Virus record (IMG/VR): IMGVR_UViG_3300009095_001359
Location: 1 to 25,705 of that record
DNA from: a virus
Taxonomy: Duplodnaviria; Caudoviricetes
DNA: 25,705 nucleotides
Reading direction: 5' to 3' (one strand)
Part shown: piece by piece, positions 1 through 22,328 of the stretch
Position numbering within the stretch: position 1 is the stretch's first letter
How the letters are laid out: each line of letters begins with the position of its first letter
Position numbers and translations under genes: made by a program
The notes under the pieces: generated by a model
Told to the model about the DNA's origin: nothing
Seen by the model: the letters and a program-made list of their open reading frames with translations, nothing else
The model's database searches: none

Positions 1-103
1 ATGCATAGAGTGACGTTCACGTCAAAGAGGGCACCCCCTCCCATACCGTTACAAGTCGGACGTACCTCGACAAGACCAGCAATAGCTATCAATTCGGACA
101 TTA

Positions 104-514
104 CTACCATGATCGTGTTGATTTAGGCTTATGCACAGGTGATAGCCTATTCTGCCTAATGCTGTTGCATTGCGCATGAACTAGTCTTAAGTTATCAATG
201 CTATGAGTTCCACCATGAGACACAGGAATGATGTGGTCAACACTGGGGCCTAGTGGCAGTCGCCCGCTTATCCCTGTATCCACGTAGCCACCACAGATGG
301 CGCAGTACGGAGGAGATTCACGCAGGACACGTAGGCGGTTAGCCCTATATCCCGTGTCCCTGTATGCCTGGTCTCCGGTAGTCCGCTTCTTGTAGTCCCG
401 TTCGTACGCCTGCGTGCATGTCCGGCATCTCCTGGCACCGTTGCGCCGCCTGATCGTGTTCTCAGGAGTCCAGGGATGTCCTTTACTGCAGACATCAGGG
501 CTAGTGCTGTCCAT
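104..514 (-). CDS. HNH endonuclease with N-terminal CxxGH...CxxC zinc finger (probably terminase/cos-associated)
   Basis: CAICG...SVDHIIPVSHGGTHSIDNLRLVHAQCN is an HNH motif; N-terminal CSKGHPWTPENT...RCRTC. Confidence 0.9.
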   Translation of the reverse strand: MDSTSPDVCSKGHPWTPENTIRRRNGARRCRTCTQAYERDYKKRTTGDQAYRDTGYRANRLRVLRESPPYCAICGGYVDTGISGRLPLGPSVDHIIPVSHGGTHSIDNLRLVHAQCNSIRQNRLSPVHKPKSTRSW

Positions 515-566
515 GTCTGTATGTCCTCTGCCCTTGCCTCTGTATGCCTGTGCCCTACTAATTGGG

Positions 567-640
567 TACCCATGACAGGAGTCGAACCTGCAACCCTCGG
601 AACCTAAATCCGATGCCTCTGCCAGTTGGGCTACATGGGC
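567..640 (-). tRNA. tRNA-Leu(TAG), short variable loop
   Basis: Cloverleaf: acceptor GCCCATG/CATGGGT, anticodon arm TCGGA-TTTAGGT-TCCGA, T-loop TTCGACT. Confidence 0.85.
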
Positions 641-644
641 TTAG

Positions 645-725
645 TACCTGTGGCTGGATTCGAACCAGCACGCGCGAACGCGGGAGGGTTTAAGCCTCCT
701 GTGTCTGCCATTCCACCACACAGGC
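645..725 (-). tRNA. tRNA-Leu(TAA) (reads TTA; bldA-equivalent)
   Basis: Acceptor GCCTGTG/CACAGGT, arm GGAGG-CTTAAAC-CCTCC, long variable arm, T-loop TTCGAAT. Confidence 0.92.
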
Positions 726-736
726 AAGATGAGATC

Positions 737-858
737 GCCCTGCACAGGAGCAACAGCTAGTCAGAGGAGAGAGCAGACTAGGCGCTACGACTGTGCAGGG
801 CCTGCACAGCCAGCGGACCACCGTAGGCGGTCTGTAAGAGCCACACGCGGGCTGTGCA
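737..858 (-). ncRNA. Candidate structured ncRNA (two domains) between tRNA-Thr and tRNA-Leu
   Basis: Helices TGCACAGCC/GGCTGTGCA and GCCCTGCACAG/CTGTGCAGGGC with internal hairpins; G-U pairs form only on the minus strand. Confidence 0.55.
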
Positions 859-869
859 TCATTAAGTTT

Positions 870-943
870 TGGAGCCTCTATCAGGAATCGAACCCGAATC
901 AACTGTTTACAAGACAGCCGCTCTGCCATTGAGCTACAGAGGC
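870..943 (-). tRNA. tRNA-Thr(TGT)
   Basis: Arm GCTGT-CTTGTAA-ACAGT, T-loop TTCGATT, encoded CCA. Confidence 0.92.
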
Positions 944-947
944 TTAG

Positions 948-1018
948 CACACCTACGAGGAATCGAACCCCAGTTAACAGGTTTGGAATCTGTTGCCTTG
1001 CCACTAGACCATAGGTGT
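948..1018 (-). tRNA. tRNA-Trp(CCA)
   Basis: Acceptor ACACCTA/TAGGTGT, loop TTCCAAA, T-loop TTCGATT. Confidence 0.85.
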
Positions 1019-1020
1019 AT

Positions 1021-1130
1021 GCAGTTCACTAACCCGGAACTGCGCAGGCCATTACTTCTATAGCGCCATAGGTTTGCGCTTATGCGATCACCGGCCGGTA
1101 AAGCAGCGCTGAGCGTACTTTTCTCGCATA
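1021..1130 (-). ncRNA. Candidate structured RNA between tRNA-Pro and tRNA-Trp
   Basis: Consecutive helices TATGCGA/TCGCATA, GCGCA/TGCGC, GCAGTTC/GAACTGC; no tRNA cloverleaf. Confidence 0.4.
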
Positions 1131-1131
1131 G

Positions 1132-1203
1132 TCCGGACTGAGAGAATCGAACTCCCTTAGTCTTCACCCCAAATGAAGAGCCTAACCATTCGGCATAGTC
1201 CGG
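1132..1203 (-). tRNA. tRNA-Pro(TGG)
   Basis: Acceptor CCGGACT/AGTCCGG, arm CTTCA-TTTGGGG-TGAAG, T-loop TTCGATT; atypical A at position 8. Confidence 0.82.
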
Positions 1204-1205
1204 TC

Positions 1206-1281
1206 GGCCTCTGAAACAGGAATTGAACCTATCGCCTTTCCTTTATCAGAGGAGAGCTCTAGCCATATGAGCTAATAAGGC
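1206..1281 (-). tRNA. tRNA-Ile(GAT), degenerate acceptor stem (possible pseudo-tRNA)
   Basis: D-arm and TCCT-CTGATAA-AGGA intact; acceptor pairs only GCCT/AGGC with an internal loop. Confidence 0.6.
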
Positions 1282-1282
1282 A

Positions 1283-1358
1283 TGGTGCATCTGGTAGGGA
1301 TCGAACCTACGACCTGAAGATTAAAAGTCAACAGCTCTACCAGCTGAGCTACAGATGC
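1283..1358 (-). tRNA. tRNA-Lys(TTT)
   Basis: Acceptor GCATCTG/CAGATGC + ACCA, loop CTTTTAA; two T-T mismatches in the anticodon stem. Confidence 0.88.
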
Positions 1359-1359
1359 G

Positions 1360-1432
1360 TACCCTGTATCGGATTCGAACCGATGCTCTTCTGACTGAGA
1401 ATCAGACGAGATAACCACTACTCTAACAGGGC
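1360..1432 (-). tRNA. tRNA-Glu(CTC)
   Basis: Arm TCTGA-TTCTCAG-TCAGA, T-loop TTCGAAT. Confidence 0.9.
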
Positions 1433-1436
1433 TTAG

Positions 1437-1508
1437 TACTGCGTACCGGATTCGAACCGGTACCTTCCTGATTGAAAATCAGGAGACCTACCATTAGTCT
1501 AACGCAGC
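1437..1508 (-). tRNA. tRNA-Glu(TTC)
   Basis: Arm CCTGA-TTTTCAA-TCAGG, T-loop TTCGAAT. Confidence 0.9.
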
Positions 1509-1516
1509 ATACACTT

Positions 1517-1948
1517 TTACTCGGCCTCTGCAACCACCTTAGTAACAAGCTCGGTAGGCTGGCCTGCATCCACTACTAGATCAACCCGTACAGGCTCTGT
1601 AGCGTCCGCATCAGTGTTGTTCTTATACCAGAGAACCAGAGGAGCAGCAGGACCAAATTCAGCCTCTGTGTAGCTCCCCCAGCTCTGGACTAGCGGGTTG
1701 TTTGTCCCACTGGTATAGCTCAGCTCATTAGGAGATTCAGCATAGGCACCGAACACTTCAACATACTGTGCAGGCTCGCCAACAGAATAGCCTAGGCAGA
1801 TCCTCTGATCCCCAGAAGTTCCTAACGCAGGGGCGAATAGCCTCACCCCGAAGAGTCTGCTAACTCCTGCAATAGCTACTCGCAGGAACTGTCCTGCTGT
1901 GTTTGTTTCTGGGTTAATAGTGACCTGTACGCTAGCGACTGTTGCCAT
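1517..1948 (-). CDS. Hypothetical beta-rich protein inside the tRNA operon
   Basis: 143 aa ORF with strong RBS (CAGAGGAGA) filling the gap between tRNAs. Confidence 0.8.
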   Translation of the reverse strand: MATVASVQVTINPETNTAGQFLRVAIAGVSRLFGVRLFAPALGTSGDQRICLGYSVGEPAQYVEVFGAYAESPNELSYTSGTNNPLVQSWGSYTEAEFGPAAPLVLWYKNNTDADATEPVRVDLVVDAGQPTELVTKVVAEAE

Positions 1949-1973
1949 TGCTGTTTCTCCTCTGTCTAATCAT

Positions 1974-2058
1974 TGGCGGGAAGTAATCGAATCGAACTAG
2001 TACCCTCGCGGATAGAGCAGATTAGCATTCTGCTTGACTAGCCATAGTCAGAACTTCC
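1974..2058 (-). tRNA. tRNA-Ser(GCT), degenerate T-stem
   Basis: Arm GCAGA-ATGCTAA-TCTGC, long variable arm, GCCA end; T-stem poorly paired. Confidence 0.65.
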
Positions 2059-2063
2059 ATTAG

Positions 2064-2135
2064 TGGAGAAACAGAGAATTGCACTCTGGACTCTGGTATG
2101 CAACACCAGCGCTTTACTGACTAAGCTATATCCCC
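2064..2135 (-). tRNA. tRNA-Ala(TGC)
   Basis: GGGGATA start with G3-U70, arm CTGGT-GTTGCAT-ACCAG; variant T-loop TGCAATT. Confidence 0.8.
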
Positions 2136-2140
2136 AAAAA

Positions 2141-2219
2141 AGACAGCCAACCATTCGACTAGTTGCTAGTCTGAAGCATCGGCGAAAGCCGTTATTCGTC
2201 TGCTCTTCAGAAGCTGTCT
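2141..2219 (-). ncRNA. Candidate three-way-junction RNA between tRNA-Val and tRNA-Ala
   Basis: AGACAGCT/GGCTGTCT closing helix, CTGAAG/CTTCAG with CGGC-TTTC-GCCG tip, GACTAG-CAA-CTAGTC hairpin, then a T-run. Confidence 0.5.
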
Positions 2220-2222
2220 ACG

Positions 2223-2293
2223 TACCCAGTGACAGAATCGAACTGCCTTAGCCTGTGTGTAAAACAGGAGCTTTCCCATTAAGCTAACCGGGC
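2223..2293 (-). tRNA. tRNA-Val(TAC)
   Basis: Arm CCTGT-TTTACAC-ACAGG, T-loop TTCGATT. Confidence 0.9.
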
Positions 2294-2294
2294 C

Positions 2295-2365
2295 TGGCGG
2301 AACTGAGAGTCGAACTCAGAGCTTCAGCATATGAGGCTGTTGTTTTACCATTAAACTATTCCGCT
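2295..2365 (-). tRNA. tRNA-Met(CAT) (1-72 mismatch, initiator-like)
   Basis: Acceptor AGCGGAA/TTCCGCC, loop CTCATAT, T-loop TTCGACT. Confidence 0.82.
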
Positions 2366-2533
2366 ATGACTGTCAGTATAGTACTGTATTGTTCTGTATA
2401 GTACTGTTCTGTATTTAGTTAATTGTTTATTAGTCTGTTCTGTGTAGTTCTGTACTGTTGCTGTATAAGTATTTACTGGACTGTATAGTCAGTACTGTAC
2501 TGAGCTGTACTGTTCTTATCCCCTTAAGGGGAT
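2366..2533. repeat. AT-rich low-complexity GTACTG/CTGTA repeat tract; includes likely -10 (TATACT, minus strand, 2375-2380) of the tRNA operon
   Basis: GTATAGTACTG at 2376 and 2396, many CTGTA/CTGTT units; perfect palindrome ATCCCCTTAAGGGGAT at 2518-2533. Confidence 0.55.
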
Positions 2534-2887
2534 CTATCAGCAGGTCAGTGCTGCAGGCTGTTCGCTCCAGGGCTTTACAGCCCTGTACCTCTCAGCCTGT
2601 ATATAGAGCTATTAGTCTGCCGAAGCCAAAGATCTTAAAGAATGTGACTAAGCTCACTAATATAACTGTCAACCTTTGGCAGCCTTCAGACGTTGCAAAC
2701 ACTGCCTGACCTGCGGATATCGACCGAATGGACGAGTTCGGATCGCCCCAAGGGTCCGAATCTCACAGGCTCACCCTATAGGGGTAGCGGGAACGGTGAG
2801 CACAGGGATACGGTTAACACAACGTCAGGTGAGCTAGCTCTCACAAGCCCCTAAAGCAGCAGGTCAGAGCAGCATTGACCCTCTGAT

Positions 2888-2917
2888 TCGACAATCCAGA
2901 ATCTGGAGTGTTAGACT
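2888..2917 (+). promoter_or_regulatory. Promoter P1 with operator in spacer
   Basis: TCGACA-18 bp (ATCCAGAATCTGGAGTGT)-TAGACT. Confidence 0.75.
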
Positions 2918-2947
2918 GCAAGGGCAGCAGGTTCACGCCTGCAGCAC

Positions 2948-2971
2948 GTTGTTACAGAATTAAACAGTGTG
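2948..2971 (+). promoter_or_regulatory. rrn boxA-like antitermination motif, copy 1
   Basis: GTTGTTACAGAATTAAACAGTGTG, 23/24 identical to 7138-7161; preceded by hairpin GCAGG-TTCACG-CCTGC. Confidence 0.55.
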
Positions 2972-2992
2972 TCCGAATAGTGAGAGAACGCA

Positions 2993-3021
2993 TCGACTAT
3001 CCAGAATCTGTGTAGTACACT
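2993..3021 (+). promoter_or_regulatory. Promoter P2 (leaderless repressor mRNA) with degenerate operator
   Basis: TCGACT-17 bp (ATCCAGAATCTGTGTAG)-TACACT; ATG 7 nt after the -10, no SD. Confidence 0.7.
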
Positions 3022-3028
3022 GCGCAGC

Positions 3029-3445
3029 ATGGACCAGCAGACAATAGACCAGATTCTGAAACTCGACAGTGAAGGGCATTCCGTAGCAGACATTGCTAAA
3101 ACAGTAGGTTTGTCTCGCCCGTACGTCAGTACCATTCTCAGTGATAAGGGCAGGGCTAGGCACACACGGGCGGGAATGGAGACTTCATTCGTGCCATTCA
3201 TCCCGCCAAAGGAGCATCGTAAGCAGCACGCTTACATGATGTTTAAGGCAATGGATAAAGACGCTGACGGAATCCCTATCGGGAAGACCACTAGAAAGGA
3301 TATGGAAGCGTTTAAAAAAGGGCTTTCGAAGAAGACATGGGTTTATGATGAGGAACGCGGTTTTTACTTTATTCCGCGTAAACCCGAGCATGGTAAGCGA
3401 CCGTTCATAGGCTTATCCACGCGCCAATTACATACACTCATCTAA
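3029..3445 (+). CDS. Immunity repressor (L5 gp71-like, N-terminal HTH)
   Basis: HTH GHSVADIAKTVGLSRPYVSTIL; C-terminal WVYDEERGFYFIPR resembles the cluster A repressor; upstream of the Cas4-like nuclease. Confidence 0.75.
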   Translation: MDQQTIDQILKLDSEGHSVADIAKTVGLSRPYVSTILSDKGRARHTRAGMETSFVPFIPPKEHRKQHAYMMFKAMDKDADGIPIGKTTRKDMEAFKKGLSKKTWVYDEERGFYFIPRKPEHGKRPFIGLSTRQLHTLI

Positions 3446-3478
3446 GGGACACAGGATCTATTCTGTGTCCCTTTTTTT
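3444..3478 (+). terminator. Intrinsic terminator after repressor
   Basis: AAGGGACACAGGA-TCTA-TTCTGTGTCCCTT then T-run. Confidence 0.85.
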
Positions 3479-3500
3479 CTACCTACAAAAGGATCAGGAC

Positions 3501-3743
3501 ATGTCGCTACTCGGCCACTCCGAAACAATGGTAGTTCCCGGCGCAACTATCGAATACCGCTACGACGGAAACCGGCTCTCCCGCGTAATAGCTCACGTAT
3601 TCTCCGGTATCTCCAGAAATAGCGTACTCGCTATGTGGGATGAAATCGGATATCACATCCCCTCTAACGCAGACCTCATTCAAGAACCCACAGAAATAGA
3701 CGGAAATGTCTATATCAAACAATGGAAGGTGATTTATGAATAG
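3501..3743 (+). CDS. Hypothetical protein
   Basis: ORF 3465-3743; ATG 3501 lies past the terminator; overlaps the next start. Confidence 0.6.
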   Translation: MSLLGHSETMVVPGATIEYRYDGNRLSRVIAHVFSGISRNSVLAMWDEIGYHIPSNADLIQEPTEIDGNVYIKQWKVIYE

Positions 3744-4545
3744 TGTTCTATTGGCTCCGCCGACTAGGAGAATGAGCCATTCGCAATTGCAGCAATACAG
3801 CAATTGTCCCTATTCTTTCTATCTGCAGCGCATAGCCAGAGATGAGAACGGGGAACGTCTGAAACAGCTAACCGCAGGCTGGTTCCTGCACGGCACTGCT
3901 GTCCATGCGGCCCTGGAGGCGTGGGAACGTTCAGGACGGACCATAAACGCGGTAGCCTACTTCTACGCTGAGTACGACGGGCTGATAGCTGAGCAGATGC
4001 TGACTCACCCTGAGCCCTGGGAATGGCTGAGAGGCGGCAGAGGCAAAACCAGAGAGGCTGATATCGCACAGCGCAGAAAACAGGGAGCTGAACAGGTGGC
4101 TAAGTACGTCGCCTGGGCTCCCCTGCAGCCCTTCCAGGTCTGGACACTGCCTGACGGTAACCCTGCCCTGGAGGTCCCGTTCACGGTGCGTCTAGGGGAT
4201 GTAGAGGTAATCGGGTTCATCGACGCCATCTGGCAGTGGCTAGGTAGTGATGAGCTAGAGCCTGTGGACTACAAGACCGGCTCTCAGCCTCCAGAGGATG
4301 CCCTGCAGCTGGGTCTCTACAGTCTGGCTATCCAGCGAGCTTTCAGTGAGGACAGTCGGCACGGCCGCTATTTCATGCTGCGAGACTGGCAGCATGAGCA
4401 GCTAGACCTGACACAGTACACAGGTGAGGCTCTGACAGAGATGTACGCGACTGCAGCGGCAGGTATCCAGGCGGGCGAGTTCCCCGCCAAGCCTGGGAGC
4501 TGCTTCACCTGCACAGTCAAGAGACACTGCAAATACAGCCGCTAA
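3736..4545 (+). CDS. Cas4/RecB-like PD-(D/E)XK exonuclease
   Basis: SHSQL..CP, HGTAVH, GFIDAI, VDYKTG, QLGLY, C-terminal CxxC..C. Confidence 0.92.
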   Translation: MNSVLLAPPTRRMSHSQLQQYSNCPYSFYLQRIARDENGERLKQLTAGWFLHGTAVHAALEAWERSGRTINAVAYFYAEYDGLIAEQMLTHPEPWEWLRGGRGKTREADIAQRRKQGAEQVAKYVAWAPLQPFQVWTLPDGNPALEVPFTVRLGDVEVIGFIDAIWQWLGSDELEPVDYKTGSQPPEDALQLGLYSLAIQRAFSEDSRHGRYFMLRDWQHEQLDLTQYTGEALTEMYATAAAGIQAGEFPAKPGSCFTCTVKRHCKYSR

Positions 4546-4576
4546 CCTGCGGAAACAGGAAAGATAGGGGGGTGGG

Positions 4577-4605
4577 TCAACACTCCAGAATCTGTAGTGT
4601 AGTGT
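4577..4605 (+). promoter_or_regulatory. Promoter P3 with operator
   Basis: TCAACA-17 bp-TAGTGT; palindrome ACACTCCAGA-A-TCTGTAGTGT. Confidence 0.65.
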
Positions 4606-4637
4606 TGTCCTCAACAGCACGAGAGAGGGAGCGGAAG

Positions 4638-4808
4638 ATGAACTCATTCGCAAATATGAGCCGTAAGGCAATTGTTACCTACCTCCAAGAGGAAGTTACC
4701 CAAGGCGTTTTCGCTCGCTTGGACTCGCAGGGCTTGGCGCGTGAACTGCATCGCAGGGGGCGCGTCTCAGACGATATGTTCTGGTGGCTAGTCGGGCAGT
4801 ACAGCTAG
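4638..4808 (+). CDS. Hypothetical protein
   Basis: ATG after GAGAGGGAG. Confidence 0.6.
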   Translation: MNSFANMSRKAIVTYLQEEVTQGVFARLDSQGLARELHRRGRVSDDMFWWLVGQYS

Positions 4809-4815
4809 ATGGGTA

Positions 4816-4865
4816 GCCCTTGCGGAGTCTTCAGGGCTCGTAGGTTCGCAACCTGGCAAGGGCAC
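4816..4865 (+). other. Mini tRNA-like element 1
   Basis: GCCCTTGC/GCAAGGGC+AC closing stem, one hairpin, T-arm-like TAGG-TTCGCAA-CCTG. Confidence 0.6.
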
Positions 4866-4918
4866 AAGACAGAGAACACAGAGAAAGTGTCAGAAGTCAA
4901 AATCAGGAAGGAATTCTA

Positions 4919-5242
4919 ATGAAGCTCACTAAGACGCAGGAAAAGGCTCTTCGCTACATCGAAAAAAACCCAGGCATGGTCACGAATGCTCGTGGGGAAG
5001 CCGCACGCGGGAAACTGACTATCAACGGACGCACTGAAAGCAGCCTGTACGTAAAAGGTCTAGTTGAGCTGTACAACCCCGAAACAGGTCTCTCTTACAG
5101 GGAGGAGAACAGCGGAGAGGATGTGCGCCCCTGGTACTCAGGGGCGTACGCCTGGAGGCTCACAGCAGCTGGAGAGGCTGCTATCAGCAGGAGCTTTCAC
5201 GAGAAGCTGCGAGAAGAATTGAACAAAGATTTCAGCCTCTAA
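4919..5242 (+). CDS. Hypothetical protein (winged-helix-like)
   Basis: KLTKTQEKAL...L.VKGLVE...WRLTAAGEAA pattern; RBS AGGAAGGA. Confidence 0.75.
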   Translation: MKLTKTQEKALRYIEKNPGMVTNARGEAARGKLTINGRTESSLYVKGLVELYNPETGLSYREENSGEDVRPWYSGAYAWRLTAAGEAAISRSFHEKLREELNKDFSL

Positions 5243-5247
5243 GGGGG

Positions 5248-5277
5248 TTAACAATCCAGATTCCGGAGTGTTAGGCT
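5248..5277 (+). promoter_or_regulatory. Promoter P4 with operator
   Basis: TTAACA-18 bp (ATCCAGATTCCGGAGTGT)-TAGGCT. Confidence 0.7.
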
Positions 5278-5370
5278 GTCTGCACCGCACTGGAGACCTT
5301 CACTCTCTGGTTGCGAAGATCGAAGAACTCTAGACAGCTCCACAAGACAGCAGAGAGAAGGGCAAGAAAA

Positions 5371-5643
5371 ATGACTATTGCTAACCGAGCGTACTGGATT
5401 GCTGCGGACCCGCACGCTAGCTCAGTTGAGGGGACAGTTAGCTCTGTGCTGGGCAGCTACGCCTCCGAATATGATGAGGATGCTATCGCGGAAGACATCC
5501 GGGCCGCAGTGAACGATGCACTTCCCGAAGGTGTGGTTCTGTGTGGAAATTCGTTCATCGGGGAGTATGACGTGGAAGTCGATTTCGCCGGACTGCTCGA
5601 ATCGATCGATATTTGGGAGATTGCCTCGAAGCACGAGATTTAG
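5371..5643 (+). CDS. Small acidic hypothetical protein
   Basis: ATG 5371; 90 aa, about 18 D/E versus 3 K/R. Confidence 0.75.
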   Translation: MTIANRAYWIAADPHASSVEGTVSSVLGSYASEYDEDAIAEDIRAAVNDALPEGVVLCGNSFIGEYDVEVDFAGLLESIDIWEIASKHEI

Positions 5644-5651
5644 TAGCAAAC

Positions 5652-5700
5652 GCCCCTGGCTAACCAGGCTGTAGAGGATCAGAGTCTCACAGGGGCACTC
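5652..5700 (+). other. Mini tRNA-like element 2 (degenerate)
   Basis: GCCCCTG/CAGGGGC+ACTC with GAGG-7 nt-TCTC arm. Confidence 0.45.
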
Positions 5701-5727
5701 AGTAGGACTAGAACAGAGGAGAAAGAA

Positions 5728-5979
5728 GTGCCGTACGATATCCACAGAATAGATCCCGAGAGCAATTACAGCAGTGACCTGCCTGTGGACTATGCGGAAG
5801 TCATCTCAGCGGACAATGACAGCCTGTACGACACTGTGCGAATGGCACAAAGTTATTCTACAGAGTGCGCACATGCGATCTACCGAGTAGTGTCGGAGCC
5901 GCTAGGCCGGGGAGTGGCAGAGTTCCAGCGCGGCATAAGGGTGCAAGTTCCTATGTATAAGGAGGAGAACTTATCATGA
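5728..5979 (+). CDS. Hypothetical protein
   Basis: GTG after CAGAGGAGA. Confidence 0.75.
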   Translation: MPYDIHRIDPESNYSSDLPVDYAEVISADNDSLYDTVRMAQSYSTECAHAIYRVVSEPLGRGVAEFQRGIRVQVPMYKEENLS

Positions 5980-6278
5980 CAGAATGGTCTTACAGCTACC
6001 AGCACCATGATTGCGAGAAGTGCCAGTCGCTGTCAGAAAAGGCGCGAGAGTTCGCTACAGTCAGAGGCTCCATTAGTGCCACCTACTCAGAAGACAGAGT
6101 TTCATATTCAGGAGATACGCAGACTCGGACAATATCAGAGCAGCACTCCTCTACAGCTACCAGGAGAGAGAACTTATCATGTGGGCGACCACAAAGAAAA
6201 ACGGAACCTATCACGCTACGTACGAACTCAACGGGGAGCCTGTCGCGGCCTGTAACCGCAGAATTCGGCCGACCGTAG
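5976..6278 (+). CDS. Hypothetical protein (3' end overlaps next gene by 100 nt)
   Basis: RBS AGGAGGAG, ATGA coupling. Confidence 0.45.
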   Translation: MTEWSYSYQHHDCEKCQSLSEKAREFATVRGSISATYSEDRVSYSGDTQTRTISEQHSSTATRRENLSCGRPQRKTEPITLRTNSTGSLSRPVTAEFGRP

Positions 6279-6589
6279 ATGCTCGGGAGTTCGACGCTAA
6301 CTCGCCGGACGGTCGATGCGAGATGGACAACTACAAGCTCTGCAACAAATGCACCGCGAAGCGGGCGCAGACTTACGCTGTTCTCGGAGCTGCACATAAG
6401 CCCACTGAGAGCCTGCCAGAGCCGGACCCGACTAGGCTCGCCCTGAAAGCCGCTGGGTACTCTAGCGACGAATACAACACGCTGACGCTCATCCCAATCA
6501 TCCTCGGATGGCTGGCTGATGACGTGGCAGTGTTCGATGACCCGGAGCTGCTGGATATCATCGCCAGCAAACACAAGATCACAGCATGA
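6179..6589 (+). CDS. Hypothetical protein (H..C..CxxC putative zinc binding)
   Basis: RBS AGGAGAGAG; YHA..AAC..LCNKC. Confidence 0.75.
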   Translation: MWATTKKNGTYHATYELNGEPVAACNRRIRPTVDAREFDANSPDGRCEMDNYKLCNKCTAKRAQTYAVLGAAHKPTESLPEPDPTRLALKAAGYSSDEYNTLTLIPIILGWLADDVAVFDDPELLDIIASKHKITA

Positions 6590-6596
6590 CGGACAG

Positions 6597-6629
6597 CAAA
6601 ACGCCCCGCCGCACCCTACGCGGCGGGGC
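6597..6629. terminator. GC-rich hairpin, probable terminator
   Basis: GCCCCGCCGC-7 nt-GCGGCGGGGC preceded by AAAAC. Confidence 0.55.
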
Positions 6630-6759
6630 TAGCTGCTTCTGCAGCCGTACAACGGTTTACCGTAGTATAGCAGAGTGGCAGCCCTACCAGGCCCAAACAC
6701 GAGACCTGCGCGGCAGGACTGCCACCCCATCACTCATCAGATCGAGATTGGATTGATAA

Positions 6760-6978
6760 ATGACAGCCAGCAGTCTACCAGAGCCGGACGGGTACCCGTA
6801 CATGGATGGGCACGCTCCGGGGCGTGGGCGAGCGTTGTGCATGTTCTGCGGTCACGGCTGGCCGTGCCCAGAGGCGCGCGATCGCGGGATCACTAAAGCG
6901 GTCGTTCTAGCCGAGATACTCCGGACAGTGAGAGGCGTAGACGCGCCACCGCCGGACCCAGAGGCTACCGAGACCTAG
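6760..6978 (+). CDS. Small zinc-finger-like protein
   Basis: H...CMFCGHGWPC motif. Confidence 0.6.
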   Translation: MTASSLPEPDGYPYMDGHAPGRGRALCMFCGHGWPCPEARDRGITKAVVLAEILRTVRGVDAPPPDPEATET

Positions 6979-7061
6979 CCTCAGCTCTGGCAGGCTCTCA
7001 GAATCGATCTCAGGCTGTTTTCCCTGGTCAGACAGGCCGGGGAATTTTCTTTGACCCCCGC

Positions 7062-7091
7062 TAGACAATCCAGAATCTGGAGTGTTAAGCT
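7062..7091 (+). promoter_or_regulatory. Promoter P5 with operator
   Basis: TAGACA-18 bp (ATCCAGAATCTGGAGTGT)-TAAGCT. Confidence 0.8.
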
Positions 7092-7137
7092 TGTGTCATC
7101 GCAAGGGAAAGCCGGGAGGCGGAACCAGGCGAGGCAG

Positions 7138-7161
7138 GTTGTTACAGAACTAAACAGTGTG
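7138..7161 (+). promoter_or_regulatory. rrn boxA-like antitermination motif, copy 2
   Basis: GTTGTTACAGAACTAAACAGTGTG downstream of P5. Confidence 0.55.
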
Positions 7162-7266
7162 AGTGTCCAGCCCAGCAGGGCAGAGAGATTAGCCGTTGAG
7201 TGCTCTCGGACCATGACCGCCAGCCGAGATTGAGCCAAAGGCTCTGGCGAAATAACCACGGACCAG

Positions 7267-7323
7267 CTTTGAAGGTTGGCCTTCCCAGTTCAGTAATTGA
7301 ACTGGTTAGGGGAGCTTTTAGAG
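7267..7323 (+). repeat. Conserved stem-loop before RBS, copy 1
   Basis: AAGGTTGGCCTTCC-[hairpin]-GTTAGGGGAGCTTTTAGA. Confidence 0.7.
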
Positions 7324-7334
7324 AGGATAGAACA

Positions 7335-7538
7335 ATGATTAATGTCCTTACCGATCGCGTATGGTTCATCCGATACGCCAACAACGGCAATTATGCTCTC
7401 AGCCGTGAGCGCATCTCCTATCGAGAAAACGGGGAAGTGCAGCTCTACACGCTGAAGGAGGCTAAAGCGAAGATCGACGAGCTTAAGCCGCTCAGCCCGA
7501 GCGTCGAATTTTTCCTAGACCTTGATATCGAAGACTAA
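7335..7538 (+). CDS. Hypothetical protein
   Basis: ATG after GAGAGGA. Confidence 0.7.
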   Translation: MINVLTDRVWFIRYANNGNYALSRERISYRENGEVQLYTLKEAKAKIDELKPLSPSVEFFLDLDIED

Positions 7539-7548
7539 ATGACAGTTC

Positions 7549-7596
7549 GCCTCCGGTCGGTATCGGCCGTACGCAGCAAAGCAACCGGAGGCACTC
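7549..7596 (+). other. Mini tRNA-like element 3 (degenerate)
   Basis: GCCTCCGG/CCGGAGGC+ACTC. Confidence 0.45.
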
Positions 7597-7624
7597 AGAG
7601 AGCTTTTAGAGAGAGGAAACAGCC

Positions 7625-7864
7625 GTGTTCAGTGCGACTGAAGAAAAGGCACGCGCGCTTATCAGTGCGCTCAATGATCGCATGTTGTGCCGTGTCATGG
7701 CCGACACCAATAAAAAGCGCAACACAGCAGACCTTATTACGGTGCGTGGATGGCTTATGGACGAGATAGAAGCTCGTCTCGGCCGGGAGAAATTCGAAGC
7801 GTGGCTGGACACAGAGGCGGAACAGGGCAGGTACGTCAACCCCTGGGAGTTCTTTAAGTCGTAG
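7625..7864 (+). CDS. Hypothetical protein
   Basis: GTG after GAGAGGA. Confidence 0.75.
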   Translation: MFSATEEKARALISALNDRMLCRVMADTNKKRNTADLITVRGWLMDEIEARLGREKFEAWLDTEAEQGRYVNPWEFFKS

Positions 7865-7873
7865 GGGGTCTGG

Positions 7874-7928
7874 TCTAAAGGTTGGCCTTCCCGCCCGTCT
7901 CGCACGGGCGGTTAGGGGAGCTTTTAGA
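7874..7928 (+). repeat. Conserved stem-loop before RBS, copy 2
   Basis: Same flanks as 7267-7323 with a different but fully paired apical hairpin. Confidence 0.7.
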
Positions 7929-7939
7929 AAGGGGATCAA

Positions 7940-8098
7940 ATGAAAAAGATCACGGCGCTTCTGACGGTTGAGGTTAGCGAAAAGACGCTAGCTGAGTTTG
8001 GGTACGCGCTTGAGGAATTCGCGGCGATGGTTCGGGCGCGTGCTGAATCGGACATGCACGAATTCCTCAACGGACACGCCAAGGTCAAAGTCAAGTAA
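7940..8098 (+). CDS. Hypothetical protein (52 aa, not in ORF track)
   Basis: MKKITALLTVEVSEK...KVK*, RBS AAAGGGG. Confidence 0.7.
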   Translation: MKKITALLTVEVSEKTLAEFGYALEEFAAMVRARAESDMHEFLNGHAKVKVK

Positions 8099-8105
8099 AA
8101 CAACC

Positions 8106-8151
8106 GCCTAGGGTGGTCTCATTCAGGGTTCGATTCCCTGGCTAGGCACTC
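8106..8151 (+). other. Mini tRNA-like element 4
   Basis: GCCTAG/CTAGGC+ACTC with canonical T-arm CAGGG-TTCGATT-CCCTG. Confidence 0.65.
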
Positions 8152-8173
8152 GGACAAGAGAAAGGAAATTGCA

Positions 8174-8585: not shown

Positions 8586-8619
8586 AGGGAACCCTGACAG
8601 TGTAGTTAGGGTTCCCTTT
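8586..8619 (+). terminator. Probable terminator
   Basis: AGGGAACCCTGAC-6 nt-GTTAGGGTTCCCT-TT. Confidence 0.65.
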
Positions 8620-8637
8620 ATCTTGGAAAGATCACCA

Positions 8638-9304: not shown

Positions 9305-9332
9305 AGCCCTAGGCAGACAGTCTAGGGCTTTT
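9305..9332 (+). terminator. Terminator after lipoprotein gene
   Basis: AGCCCTAGGC-5 nt-GTCTAGGGCT-TTT. Confidence 0.75.
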
Positions 9333-9362
9333 CCTATCCCCTCAGAACAGGAGAGACAGACA

Positions 9363-9596: not shown

Positions 9597-9616
9597 ATCT
9601 ATTAACAATTGAATAA

Positions 9617-15285: not shown

Positions 15286-15822
15286 ATGACTCACATTGAT
15301 CCTTTTGGTTCTGCGACTGTCAGCCCCGAAGAAGAAGGAATGCAGGGAGTGGACATTCAGGCTGCTGAACGTCCACAGGCTGTTCACAGCTCTGAGGCTC
15401 TGTCTGTGACGCTGAAGGCGCACAGCGGACATGATGCGCCGTGGGTGGTTATCAAGGGCGGCACGGTTGCTGAGGTTAAGGAGACGCTTCAGGATGTTGT
15501 GCAGGCTGAGCTGCTGGATGATATCGCTGCTGCGGTGAAGACTTTCTCCGCTGTGGCTGGCCGTCCTACTGCCTCTGCTGCCTCTGCTGCTGCTCAGCAG
15601 AGCTATACGGCTCCTGCTGCTCAGGCTGCCGCTGCTGCTGCAGCTCCGGCCGCTAAGCGTTTCACGCCCGTACAGGGTGATGCTTGCGAGCATGGGCAGC
15701 TCGTTTACGACGAGTGGACTAACCCCCGGACGCAGAAGACAAGCCGCGCCTACAAGTGCCCTCTGAAGGTCGCTAACTGGCGTGATCCTAATGCTTGCAA
15801 CGCTATCAAGTGGGCGGGATAG
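15286..15822 (+). CDS. Conserved actinophage protein upstream of PolA (putative ssDNA-binding)
   Basis: VTLK..GHDAPWVV, Ala-rich linker, CEHG..C..C C-terminal domain. Confidence 0.65.
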   Translation: MTHIDPFGSATVSPEEEGMQGVDIQAAERPQAVHSSEALSVTLKAHSGHDAPWVVIKGGTVAEVKETLQDVVQAELLDDIAAAVKTFSAVAGRPTASAASAAAQQSYTAPAAQAAAAAAAPAAKRFTPVQGDACEHGQLVYDEWTNPRTQKTSRAYKCPLKVANWRDPNACNAIKWAG

Positions 15823-15843
15823 TAGCCCTAGCTAGAAACCGAC

Positions 15844-15876
15844 AGGGAGCCCTGAGACAGCATCAGGGCTCCCTTT
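15844..15876 (+). terminator. Hairpin before polA
   Basis: AGGGAGCCCTGA-7 nt-TCAGGGCTCCCT-TT. Confidence 0.6.
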
Positions 15877-15896
15877 GCCATAGGAGGGAGGATAGG

Positions 15897-17717
15897 GTGA
15901 GGCAACTTCAATACAAACTCAAAACGGAACCAATCAGAATCAACATTGTCGAAACAGATGATGACCTAGACGGATTCATTGAGTTTGTCCGGAACAACCA
16001 GACGATAGCATTCGACACAGAAACAACAGGTCTGCTGATCTACGCCAACACATTCAAAATCCGCGTGGCCCAGTTCAGCAATGCCTCCGAGTCATGGGTT
16101 ATTCCTGTAGAGCGTTCAGTGAAATGGTCTTGGCTAGCCGCTAATGCTCTTCTCAGAGCTAAACAGCTGATTATCCAAAACGCCGCTTTCGATATCCCTG
16201 TCGTTGTCAGGCATTGGGGCCTGGACATGCGAGAACTATTCGAAAAAACCATTGACACTAAAATCCTGGCGAAGCTGGTTGATTCTCGCAGTGTCGACGC
16301 AGGCGGTACAGGAGACAGTCTAGAGGATCTGACAGCACACTACATTGATAAAACGACTGCTGCAGAGATTAAAGGTCTCGCGACTGCTGAAGCTAAACGA
16401 CTGAAAATCAAGAAAGACGAGTATTTCACTAAAGTAAGCATCAGGGACCATAACTATCTGCTGTATGCGGGGATGGACCCTATCCTCACCTACCGGTTGT
16501 GGAAGATCCTAGGCAAGTTGGTTCCGTCGTCTGCGAGACAGCTAATCGGTTTCGAGCATGAAGTGCAGAGAGTCTGTACTGAGGTAAGCCACAGAGGCTA
16601 TCTGTTGGATCTGGCTTACGCTAAAAAGCTCAGCTCGAAACTGCGGGCTACAGAGACTCGGAATGTGAACGTTGCCAGATCGTATGGTATCGAGAATGTC
16701 AACTCTGATGCTGAAGTTATCGACGCTCTCAGATACTACGGATGGTTTAACATCCCTGTATCGGAGAAGGGTAACGAAAGCGTCAACGGTGACCTACTGC
16801 AGGCTCTACAGGGCAGCGGGTATAAAGACCTGGCTAAGCTCGGTAAAGCCATCCAGGAGGCCACTAGAGCCCGTAAATGGCGGAACACCTGGGTTGACAC
16901 GTTCATTCACACAGCAGACGCTGAGGGCTACTGTCACCCGTCTATCAACACTTTGCAGGCTCGCACTGGCAGGATGTCTATCACTGGTATCCCGGCTCAG
17001 ACACTGCCAGCAGGTGAGGCCAGTATCAGGCTCTGTTTCCTGGCAGAAGAGGGACACGTGTCCCTCAGCACTGACTATCAGGCACAGGAGCTGCGAGTGC
17101 TGGCAGCACTGTCACAAGACCCTGTGATGCTGGACGCTTTCAAGCGCGGCCTAGACCTACACCAGGTCACGGCAGATGCTGCAGGAGTAACCAGGAAAGC
17201 GGGCAAGGGCACGAACTTCGCTGTTGTTTTCGGCGGGGGAGTGAACGCAATTGTTACGCAGTTTGGAGTGGAGCGGACGGACGCAGAGAAAACCTATAAG
17301 GCTTTCAAAGAAACCTATTTGGGAGTGGCTGCCTATTCTCGCAGACTGAGCAATCAGGCTAAAAGACAGGGTTACATTGTCACGCCTTCCGGCCGGAAAC
17401 TGCTCATCGACCCTGACCGGCCTTATTCGGCTACTAACGCTGCGGTGCAGTCTACTGCTCGTGACGTGACCTGTAGAGGACTGCTCAGACTAGACAAGGA
17501 GGGATTCACTCCGTACATTCGTCTGCCTATCCATGATGAGATTGTCTTTAGTGTTCCTGCTGAGCATGAAGAGTACGCCGCCAGGCGGACTAACGAGCTA
17601 ATGCAGGAGGAGATGGCAGGGCTCATGATTAGTACTGAGGCTGAGGCTATGGGTAGAAGCTGGGGAAGTCTTTATGAAGATCCTGACAGTAATAGAAAGT
17701 ATGTGTTGGATAGCTAA
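15897..17717 (+). CDS. polA: DNA polymerase I (family A, 3'-5' exonuclease + polymerase)
   Basis: DTETTGL, RTGRMS, DYQAQELR, KGTNF, IHDE; GTG start after GGAGGGAGG. Confidence 0.95.
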   Translation: MRQLQYKLKTEPIRINIVETDDDLDGFIEFVRNNQTIAFDTETTGLLIYANTFKIRVAQFSNASESWVIPVERSVKWSWLAANALLRAKQLIIQNAAFDIPVVVRHWGLDMRELFEKTIDTKILAKLVDSRSVDAGGTGDSLEDLTAHYIDKTTAAEIKGLATAEAKRLKIKKDEYFTKVSIRDHNYLLYAGMDPILTYRLWKILGKLVPSSARQLIGFEHEVQRVCTEVSHRGYLLDLAYAKKLSSKLRATETRNVNVARSYGIENVNSDAEVIDALRYYGWFNIPVSEKGNESVNGDLLQALQGSGYKDLAKLGKAIQEATRARKWRNTWVDTFIHTADAEGYCHPSINTLQARTGRMSITGIPAQTLPAGEASIRLCFLAEEGHVSLSTDYQAQELRVLAALSQDPVMLDAFKRGLDLHQVTADAAGVTRKAGKGTNFAVVFGGGVNAIVTQFGVERTDAEKTYKAFKETYLGVAAYSRRLSNQAKRQGYIVTPSGRKLLIDPDRPYSATNAAVQSTARDVTCRGLLRLDKEGFTPYIRLPIHDEIVFSVPAEHEEYAARRTNELMQEEMAGLMISTEAEAMGRSWGSLYEDPDSNRKYVLDS

Positions 17718-21360: not shown

Positions 21361-21392
21361 AGGGAGCCTTGGCGGATGCTGAGGCTCCCTTT
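21361..21392 (+). terminator. Hairpin after RNR
   Basis: AGGGAGCCTTGGC-GGAT-GCTGAGGCTCCCT-TT. Confidence 0.6.
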
Positions 21393-21410
21393 GTATCTGA
21401 GGGACAGAAA

Positions 21411-21965: not shown

Positions 21966-22328
21966 TTGTACGAATACACTTATAGTACTAAAGCCAGCAT
22001 TAATGGCAGGATCATTCCAACTGAACTTATCTACTCTGAAGAAGACCCGTTCGCTGTTCAATTCAAATTCTATAGCGACGGTAAAACCACTACCTGGTAT
22101 TTCTCCTATGAGCTGTTTATCAAGGGCATTACGTCCCGCCGCTGGGTAGGACTCGGAGACATCCAGGTCAAGAAAGCGAAGCATTCGATTATGCTTAAGC
22201 TTCATGGACAGGACCACAGTGCAACTGTAGGGCTGATCCCTGAAGACGTTGACGCATTCCTTAATAGTTTCGATCCGGTTGAGCTGGATTTCGAAGAGGA
22301 ACTGGAAGACCTTATTAAGGGTAACTAA
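21966..22328 (+). CDS. SsgA-family sporulation/cell division protein
   Basis: L.Y...DPFAV.F.F.....W.FS.EL...G......GLGDI is the SALP signature. Confidence 0.82.
   Translation: MYEYTYSTKASINGRIIPTELIYSEEDPFAVQFKFYSDGKTTTWYFSYELFIKGITSRRWVGLGDIQVKKAKHSIMLKLHGQDHSATVGLIPEDVDAFLNSFDPVELDFEEELEDLIKGN

Follow-up and report, generated by a model that had tools for sequence, protein, structure and literature searches.

How does a temperate phage with two co-directional promoters in front of its immunity repressor keep the RNA of lysogeny apart from that of lytic growth, and what would a copy of a host rRNA-leader element do between the two? The question is posed by one locus in a 25,705-nt stretch of Caudoviricetes DNA (IMG/VR record IMGVR_UViG_3300009095_001359, positions 1 to 25,705; hereafter the window), whose gene content marks it as the early/replication arm of a temperate actinophage. 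The window encodes a Cas4 exonuclease, a helicase, endonuclease VII, a split primase, polymerase I, ThyX, ribonucleotide reductase, a serine integrase and an endolysin, together with 12 tRNAs, which were the only RNA family recovered by an Rfam scan of the window. It also carries an SsgA-family sporulation/cell-division protein (21966-22328; Pfam E 1e-13) and, between the tRNA cluster and the first promoter of the locus, a CTGTA-rich low-complexity tract (2365-2660), which is where the divergent late promoter, and perhaps a packaging site, would lie.

No closer relative was found than a prophage of Glycomyces mayteni, which forms a low-GC island of some 46 kb with an integrase and a lysin at its bounds; this makes Glycomyces or a similar organism the likely host. 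Homologues were present in this prophage for 18 of the 38 window proteins tested (24–67% identical), 16 of them in the order of the window. DNA polymerase (15795-17717) and integrase are only 27% and 24% identical between the two phages, against 67% for endonuclease VII, which suggests gene replacement. Genes for a NusB-family protein and for Rho were found in the host.

The two promoters, hairpin, boxA-like motif, start codon, repressor gene and terminator named in a preliminary description of this DNA are all present where it had placed them, and are followed by two further genes:

2888-2917, plus strand: predicted promoter P1 (TCGACA, 18 nt, TAGACT), with a counterpart in the G. mayteni prophage
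2891-2911, either strand: predicted operator O1, a 21-bp palindrome within the P1 spacer, with the same sequence as the one at 7065
2927-2942, plus strand: 6-bp hairpin predicted by folding, just before boxA in a boxB-like position
2947-2971, plus strand: boxA with boxC-like tail, a putative copy of the actinobacterial rRNA-leader element, carrying U8A/G9C
2993-3021, plus strand: predicted promoter P2 (TCGACT, 17 nt, TACACT), with a counterpart in the G. mayteni prophage
2996-3016, either strand: predicted operator O2, inside P2, the weakest of the window's operators
3029-3445, plus strand: immunity repressor (138 aa, helix-turn-helix and Stoperator-type domains), lacking a Shine-Dalgarno (SD) sequence and predicted to be leaderless from P2
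3444-3478, plus strand: predicted intrinsic terminator t1 (13-pair stem at 3444-3473, 7 T/U)
3501-3743, plus strand: 80-aa open reading frame (ORF), function not assigned, with an SD and an 8-nt overlap with the Cas4 start
3736-4545, plus strand: Cas4-family exonuclease, 57% identical in the relative

The repressor was recognized mainly through profiles and structure. Direct searches gave weak matches (PHROG E 6e-5; 25–32% identity to BD/CA immunity repressors), and a 17-sequence profile matched the TipsytheTRex repressor 7R6R over both domains (E 8e-8; positions 7-121 of the 129 in the profile). A structure model (pLDDT 89) compared with 48,161 chains found 7TZ1 as the best match (Z 10.2, 128 residues aligned, rmsd 4.4), and a second structural comparison gave TM 0.59 and E 2e-3; a predicted homodimer scored 0.37 against a mark of 0.42. 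By its model, the product of 3029-3445 is thus assigned to the cluster A/BD-type immunity repressors, and the temperate context, with an integrase in the window and Cas4 as the repressor's neighbour, fits a phage of this kind. Homologous two-domain repressors occur in cluster A phages (L5, TipsytheTRex) and in R4-like/BD Streptomyces phages, and the L5 gene order 71-70-69 equals repressor-ORF-Cas4 in the window. Like the window phage, cluster A/BD phages are reported to have several repressor promoters, and according to the same source a Cro analogue is not known from them (PMC6550527). The L5 repressor gene, unlike that of the window, has an SD and, as judged by eye, is not followed by an evident terminator. 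In phiHau3 a terminator-like hairpin does come after the repressor (by eye). Neither phage gave a boxA match.

The start of the repressor gene was described from the outset as lacking an SD and lying 7 nt after the P2 -10, and this is borne out: the ATG is at 3029, no earlier in-frame start exists, and pairing with the anti-SD reaches -1.7 kcal/mol, against -5.3 to -11.3 at all 19 other window starts tested. Leaderless mRNAs are reported to be common in Streptomyces, and lambda cI uses one (PMC4681348), made from PRM; the window repressor mRNA is predicted to resemble it in this respect.

Both promoters of the repressor carry an operator, and the P1 site is, as first noted, the better palindrome (9 of 10 pairs against 8 of 10 in the P2 site; both 21 bp). 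Three further operator-promoters and a second boxA had been overlooked. The region downstream reads as follows:

4577-4605, plus strand: operator-promoter P3, with no boxA behind it
4919-5242, plus strand: 107-aa conserved protein with a predicted winged-helix fold
5248-5277, plus strand: operator-promoter P4, with no boxA behind it
7020-7052, plus strand: predicted terminator at the end of the P3/P4 unit, immediately ahead of P5, with a counterpart in the relative
7062-7091, plus strand: operator-promoter P5, at the head of a 15-kb early/replication operon
7137-7161, plus strand: another copy of boxA/boxC, 46 nt downstream of the P5 -10, with the 24-mer 7138-7161 identical in the relative
8586-8625, plus strand: predicted terminator in the P5 operon, with no phage-type promoter after it
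9305-9337, plus strand: predicted terminator in the P5 operon, with no phage-type promoter after it
21361-21398, plus strand: predicted terminator late in the P5 operon

All five operator-promoter units of the window (2888, 2993, 4577, 5248 and 7062) are intergenic and on the plus strand. With a symmetrised matrix the five operators score 27–35 bits and the next best site 5.3, and in the relative five sites of a different palindrome score 28–32 bits and the next 8.9, each matrix being scored on its own training sites. The operator in P2 is the weakest site in both phages. A general sigma-70 scan alone proves nothing for P1, since P1 is one of three matches in positions 1-8000 where 4.9 are expected by chance; P2 falls under the threshold of that scanner, and the scans used here would miss any promoter recognized by a sigma-like protein that the phage itself encodes (14571). 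In the 80 kb spanning the prophage, four of the five operator sites lie in promoters; the fifth (G001:C4:4768456-4768476), before a phosphoesterase region, has a -35 and no -10, and is possibly a lone roadblock site or a decayed promoter.

Known members of this repressor family are reported to bind 20–30 asymmetric sites as monomers (PMC9283540, PMC6550527). The 25.7-kb window instead holds five palindromic sites of 21 bp (8–9 of 10 pairs), all inside promoter spacers, rather than 20–30 asymmetric stoperators of 13–14 bp, a count that refers to the arm in the window, the structural arm lying outside it, and to sites of similar sequence, since a differing one would be missed. By these scans the phage would thus have a stoperator-family repressor without stoperators.

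Strain variation is known here from single contigs of depth under 5, out of two sequencing runs of which one is flagged as probably DNA, and is weak evidence. One contig reads TTGACA for the P1 -35 and TAAGCT for its -10, with a P2-ATG gap of 6 nt and 2923-3023 unchanged. In another, the changes to t1 are confined to its loop, its closing pair and the distal part of the U run. A strain contig of depth 4.7 has P4 and its gene (5247-5638) replaced by a junction starting with TTGACA, and the P4 unit appears to be an optional cassette.

What, then, is the motif between P1 and P2? The preliminary description called it boxA-like, and its match to the host makes this more specific. The P1 element is identical to the 24-mer of the G. 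mayteni rrn leader at 19 of 24 positions and the P5 copy at 20 of 24; these two are the window's best matches (5 and 4 mismatches), the next site having 8, and 300 dinucleotide shuffles of the window gave no match with 5 or fewer mismatches. The P1 element is 93% identical to the copy at 7134-7161. Over boxA positions 1-9, seven match the host rRNA leader, and positions 8-9 differ. In the G. mayteni genome, the only one with an exact match to the boxA pattern, a one-mismatch pattern occurs at seven places (reversed control 0). Five are rRNA leaders, four of them about 196 nt before a 16S match and the fifth with the same flanks, and the other two belong to the prophage, where one follows the counterpart of P5 and the other separates the counterparts of P1 and P2. 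Judged from these matches, the motif is a copy of the host rRNA-leader boxA/boxC.

The element is also what has been kept between the two phages: the P1 boxA/boxC stretch is identical at 21 of 25 positions, and its flanks at 8 of 29 and 8 of 21. All four copies lie on the transcribed strand just behind a predicted promoter and a hairpin, 19–47 nt from the predicted -10. The hairpin precedes boxA in all four leaders, and its sequence before the P1 boxA is not conserved (the 8 of 29, over 2918-2946); no conserved hairpin after boxA was seen in the two-sequence alignment of window and prophage. U8A/G9C is found in three of the four copies; the exception is the relative's P1 boxA, which keeps the host letters at positions 8-9. 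Two long intergenic stems with conserved outer arms recur farther along, just before an SD (7272-7325 and 7878-7930), and are found in the relative too (81%); we take them to resemble RNase III-type processing sites. The non-coding leader behind P5 (7092-7334) is 74% identical to the relative over 234 nt, more than coding DNA, and an abundant non-coding RNA from Pleft of L5 is reported to be made at the matching place (PMC5712189).

The conservation extends to the whole arrangement, and the order P1, boxA, P2, 7 nt, ATG, repressor, terminator, ORF and Cas4 survives in the diverged prophage, where a third operator-promoter follows. The prophage repressor is 38% identical to that of the window and its start has a weak SD-like pairing (-5.4); its t1 is a weaker hairpin with UUUUG at the same place, which a standard terminator scan missed. 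The ORF behind the repressor has 83 aa and the same 8-nt overlap into Cas4. BLASTP found no homologue of the 80-aa ORF in the relative, and an Atlas search of it named no family, but aligned at the same place the two are homologous (score 81, against 23.6±4.4 in shuffles, reached in 0 of 2000). The layout was found in 1 of 33 genomes of the genus and 1 of 401 of the order, the same genome both times, so that it is seen in two independent genomes, the window phage and one diverged relative. Among 101 genomes searched for Cas4, only G. mayteni (G001) and one other (G022) gave matches, and the latter has a more L5-like repressor with an SD and no boxA match. Viral contigs searched with the repressor, Cas4, alignment A2 and P0003 gave no further relatives, and alignment A2 in metagenome contigs returned the window itself and one 30% match.

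Boxes of this type are not peculiar to the locus. Short rrn-type boxA queries matched 133 and 150 phage records, duplicates and close kin included; judged by their names, 130 and 149 of these are actinophages. Among the matches listed for the 133-record query, 57 of 60 lie between genes, for the most part towards the right end. In Zemlya, RGL3, Bongo and Scherzo, boxA stands in a genome-end leader or at a tRNA cluster, none annotated beside a repressor, and no repressor match lay within 1.5 kb of boxA at any of the 14 viral loci examined. A second boxA of Bongo (54891-54912) sits between tRNA-Trp and tmRNA at the head of its tRNA cluster, and host-type boxA is flanked by Pistol ribozymes at three viral loci (L007, L009 and L010). 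T7 may have a counterpart, though none turned up in the literature searched. Going by these matches, rrn-type boxA behind early promoters is frequent among actinophages, and what is unusual here is its position between repressor promoters. None of the titles and abstract openings listed by the literature searches described boxA in actinophages or this layout; older subscription papers on L5 promoters, the R4 family, phiC31 and cluster M were beyond its scope and may bear on novelty.

The genes that boxA could serve depend on where transcription ends. No phage-type promoter, by a pattern derived from the window's own five, was found between repressor and Cas4 in either phage; a TACACT at 3433 was rejected as a promoter of this cassette because it has no -35. 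Strong intergenic hairpin-plus-U sites without a following phage-type promoter occur only in boxA units, four in the window (3444, 8586, 9305 and 21361) and six in the relative. None lies within the P3/P4 units, which have no boxA, as far as the terminator that shields P5; about two would be expected there, and the difference is not significant. This distribution fits read-through from the boxA promoters. The preliminary description had P1 transcripts possibly running on into the Cas4/early genes, which was overstated: P3, P4 and P5 carry operators of their own, so that among early genes read-through from P1 likely gates the 80-aa ORF and Cas4 only.

Two other sets of repeats were seen in the early region. 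Intergenic hairpins followed by GGCAC(T/A) lie at 4811-4866, 5644-5705 and 8105-8152, two of the three with tRNA T-loop-like sequence, and a similar element is present in locus L015. The motif ACAAYTGAATA is exact at 9605, 9693 and 10469, two of which flank tRNA-Arg; 0.47 sites are expected at one mismatch, and three were reached in 2 of 100 shuffles. It was not adopted as extra boxA sites, because six of its seven one-mismatch matches in the relative lie in the late arm, several of them between SD and ATG.

The reading that we prefer, and to which we would give an even chance, is that host Nus factors separate lytic RNA from P1 and lysogenic RNA from P2 by antitermination that needs no N protein. 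In a lysogen, the repressor would shut P1, P3, P4 and P5 and only damp P2, since P2 has the weakest operator, and P2 would yield a leaderless RNA for the repressor alone, ending at t1. When repressor is lacking, transcripts from P1 and P5 would load NusB/S10, NusA and NusG, with an equivalent of SuhB, and the polymerases so equipped would pass the terminators behind them without a phage N protein. P1 polymerases reading through t1 would transcribe the 80-aa gene and Cas4, and the P5 boxA would have the like effect in the replication operon. On P1 RNA the SD-less repressor start would be poorly translated, possibly even actively blocked as in E. coli suhB, and polymerases from P1 crossing P2, together with such a Nus-dependent block, may lower the repressor further in lytic growth. 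The choice itself would rest on operator occupancy and boxA would sharpen it; because P3–P5 carry their own operators, the lytic programme would be gated mainly by the repressor. Where the preliminary description had made antitermination the basis of the switch, it is thus likely one part of a repressor-operator switch. Its statement that no N-like gene lies nearby holds as far as tested; for Cro it holds less firmly, as the conserved gene at 4919-5242, by its predicted fold, is possibly a second regulator, a lead only.

Work on other bacteria lends this reading precedent. The E. coli rrn complex with SuhB is reported to lower intrinsic termination at tR' in vitro (PMC6614801), NusB of B. subtilis to bind boxA-like RNA of that species (PMC13753749), and the boxA of E. 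coli suhB to repress translation up to 100 nt away (PMC5725501). The latter boxA belongs to a 5' leader and lies no more than 100 nt from the start codon, and the P1 boxA starts about 80 nt upstream of the repressor AUG; unlike suhB, the window has a second, boxA-free promoter and a hard terminator after the gene. Against the host-Nus reading, a weakened, lambda-like boxA would face a strong t1 (7 U). U8A/G9C are reported as the changes that weaken lambda boxA (PMC3177189), with Kd values of about 80–90 nM against 5–8 nM and about tenfold weaker binding of NusB/NusE (PMC2800207). Also against it, by analogy, mycobacterial RNA polymerase is reported to terminate more readily, its NusG to stimulate termination and its NusA to be without AR domains (PMC3993855), and E. 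coli SuhB acts partly through NusA AR2 (PMC6614801). Further points that would count against it are the relative's weak SD-like pairing and weaker t1, the single independent relative with the layout, the missing boxA match in L5 and phiHau3, the promoters that a phage sigma-like protein could read outside the scans, and the ability of the finished P1 boxA RNA to pair with its own tail (P unpaired 0.25). The fuller proposition, that lysis or lysogeny is decided by promoter choice across an rRNA boxA in a phage with neither its own antiterminator nor Cro, a Nus complex on P1 RNA both silencing the repressor start and passing the terminator, and P2 giving the leaderless repressor RNA, we regard as possible but doubtful.

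An unlikely alternative is that boxA does not control t1 at all, and either shields untranslated P1 RNA from Rho or blocks translation in the manner of suhB with Rho termination following, the Cas4 cassette living on a constant leak through t1. P1 RNA spans about 400 nt of repressor gene that would be translated poorly, a Rho gene is present in the host, and depending on context boxA can promote Rho termination instead of preventing it (PMC12360218, PMC5725501). The repressor gene, however, shows no richness in C (C 94, G 105), repression would make little sense at the P5 boxA, which stands at the head of a replication operon, and the restriction of promoter-less terminators to boxA promoters in both phages would be left unexplained, although this last point is a weak one.

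It is rather improbable that hairpin and boxA form a lambda-like nut site that needs a phage helper protein at strong terminators. The locus resembles lambda nut/N in that the same two boxA transversions recur in three of four copies from two phages, a hairpin stands before boxA in all four leaders, t1 is strong, and promoter-less genes lie past the first terminator. Lambda has N, however, and no N candidate was found for the window phage: a crude test among the ORFs listed gave no small Arg-rich protein common to both phages, limited by the fast divergence of N proteins, and no early ORF scanned had a Pfam family over the cut-off. ORF 5311, Arg-rich if started at TTG, was rejected as a candidate because it has no homologue in the relative and its unit is skipped in a strain contig. 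In addition, the hairpin is not conserved in sequence, the relative's P1 boxA has host letters at 8-9, and host-consensus boxA is common in other actinophages. Unlike lambda, the window has tandem, co-directional promoters and the repressor itself before the first terminator.

It is highly improbable that the motif serves as half of an RNase III-type processing helix or to stabilise the RNA. In its favour, the corresponding rRNA-leader sequence of the host forms a duplex with the 16S-23S spacer (-39.8 kcal/mol, against -22.7±2.3 in shuffles). Within 2 kb, however, three of the four phage copies, both P1 copies included, find no better partner than shuffled sequences do, and the fourth forms a broken duplex on a GT repeat (-27.3, against -20.8±1.9; 15 shuffles each). 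Because the P1 copies are without a host-like pairing partner in this sense, protein binding is what the conservation of boxA would point to. The phage elements share the promoter-hairpin-boxA-boxC geometry of bacterial rRNA-operon leaders and differ from them in standing before protein genes, in U8A/G9C and in having no processing-stalk partner; in contrast to its role in an rRNA leader, the phage boxA would tell two overlapping transcripts apart.

Taken together, the comparisons indicate that the locus is a real, conserved feature in which known parts are newly arranged, and its switch logic is a proposal. It offers a stoperator-family repressor apparently acting on few palindromic operators and, for the lysis/lysogeny choice of cluster A/BD-type actinophages without Cro, a testable logic within about 600 bp. 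P1 and P2 form a natural paired test, two promoters 105 bp apart that share one terminator and differ in boxA, which bears on whether, in actinobacteria, boxA and Nus factors can carry polymerase past intrinsic terminators when N is absent. If the promoter-choice reading is true, the decision would sense free host rRNA-transcription machinery, and with it the growth state of the cell.
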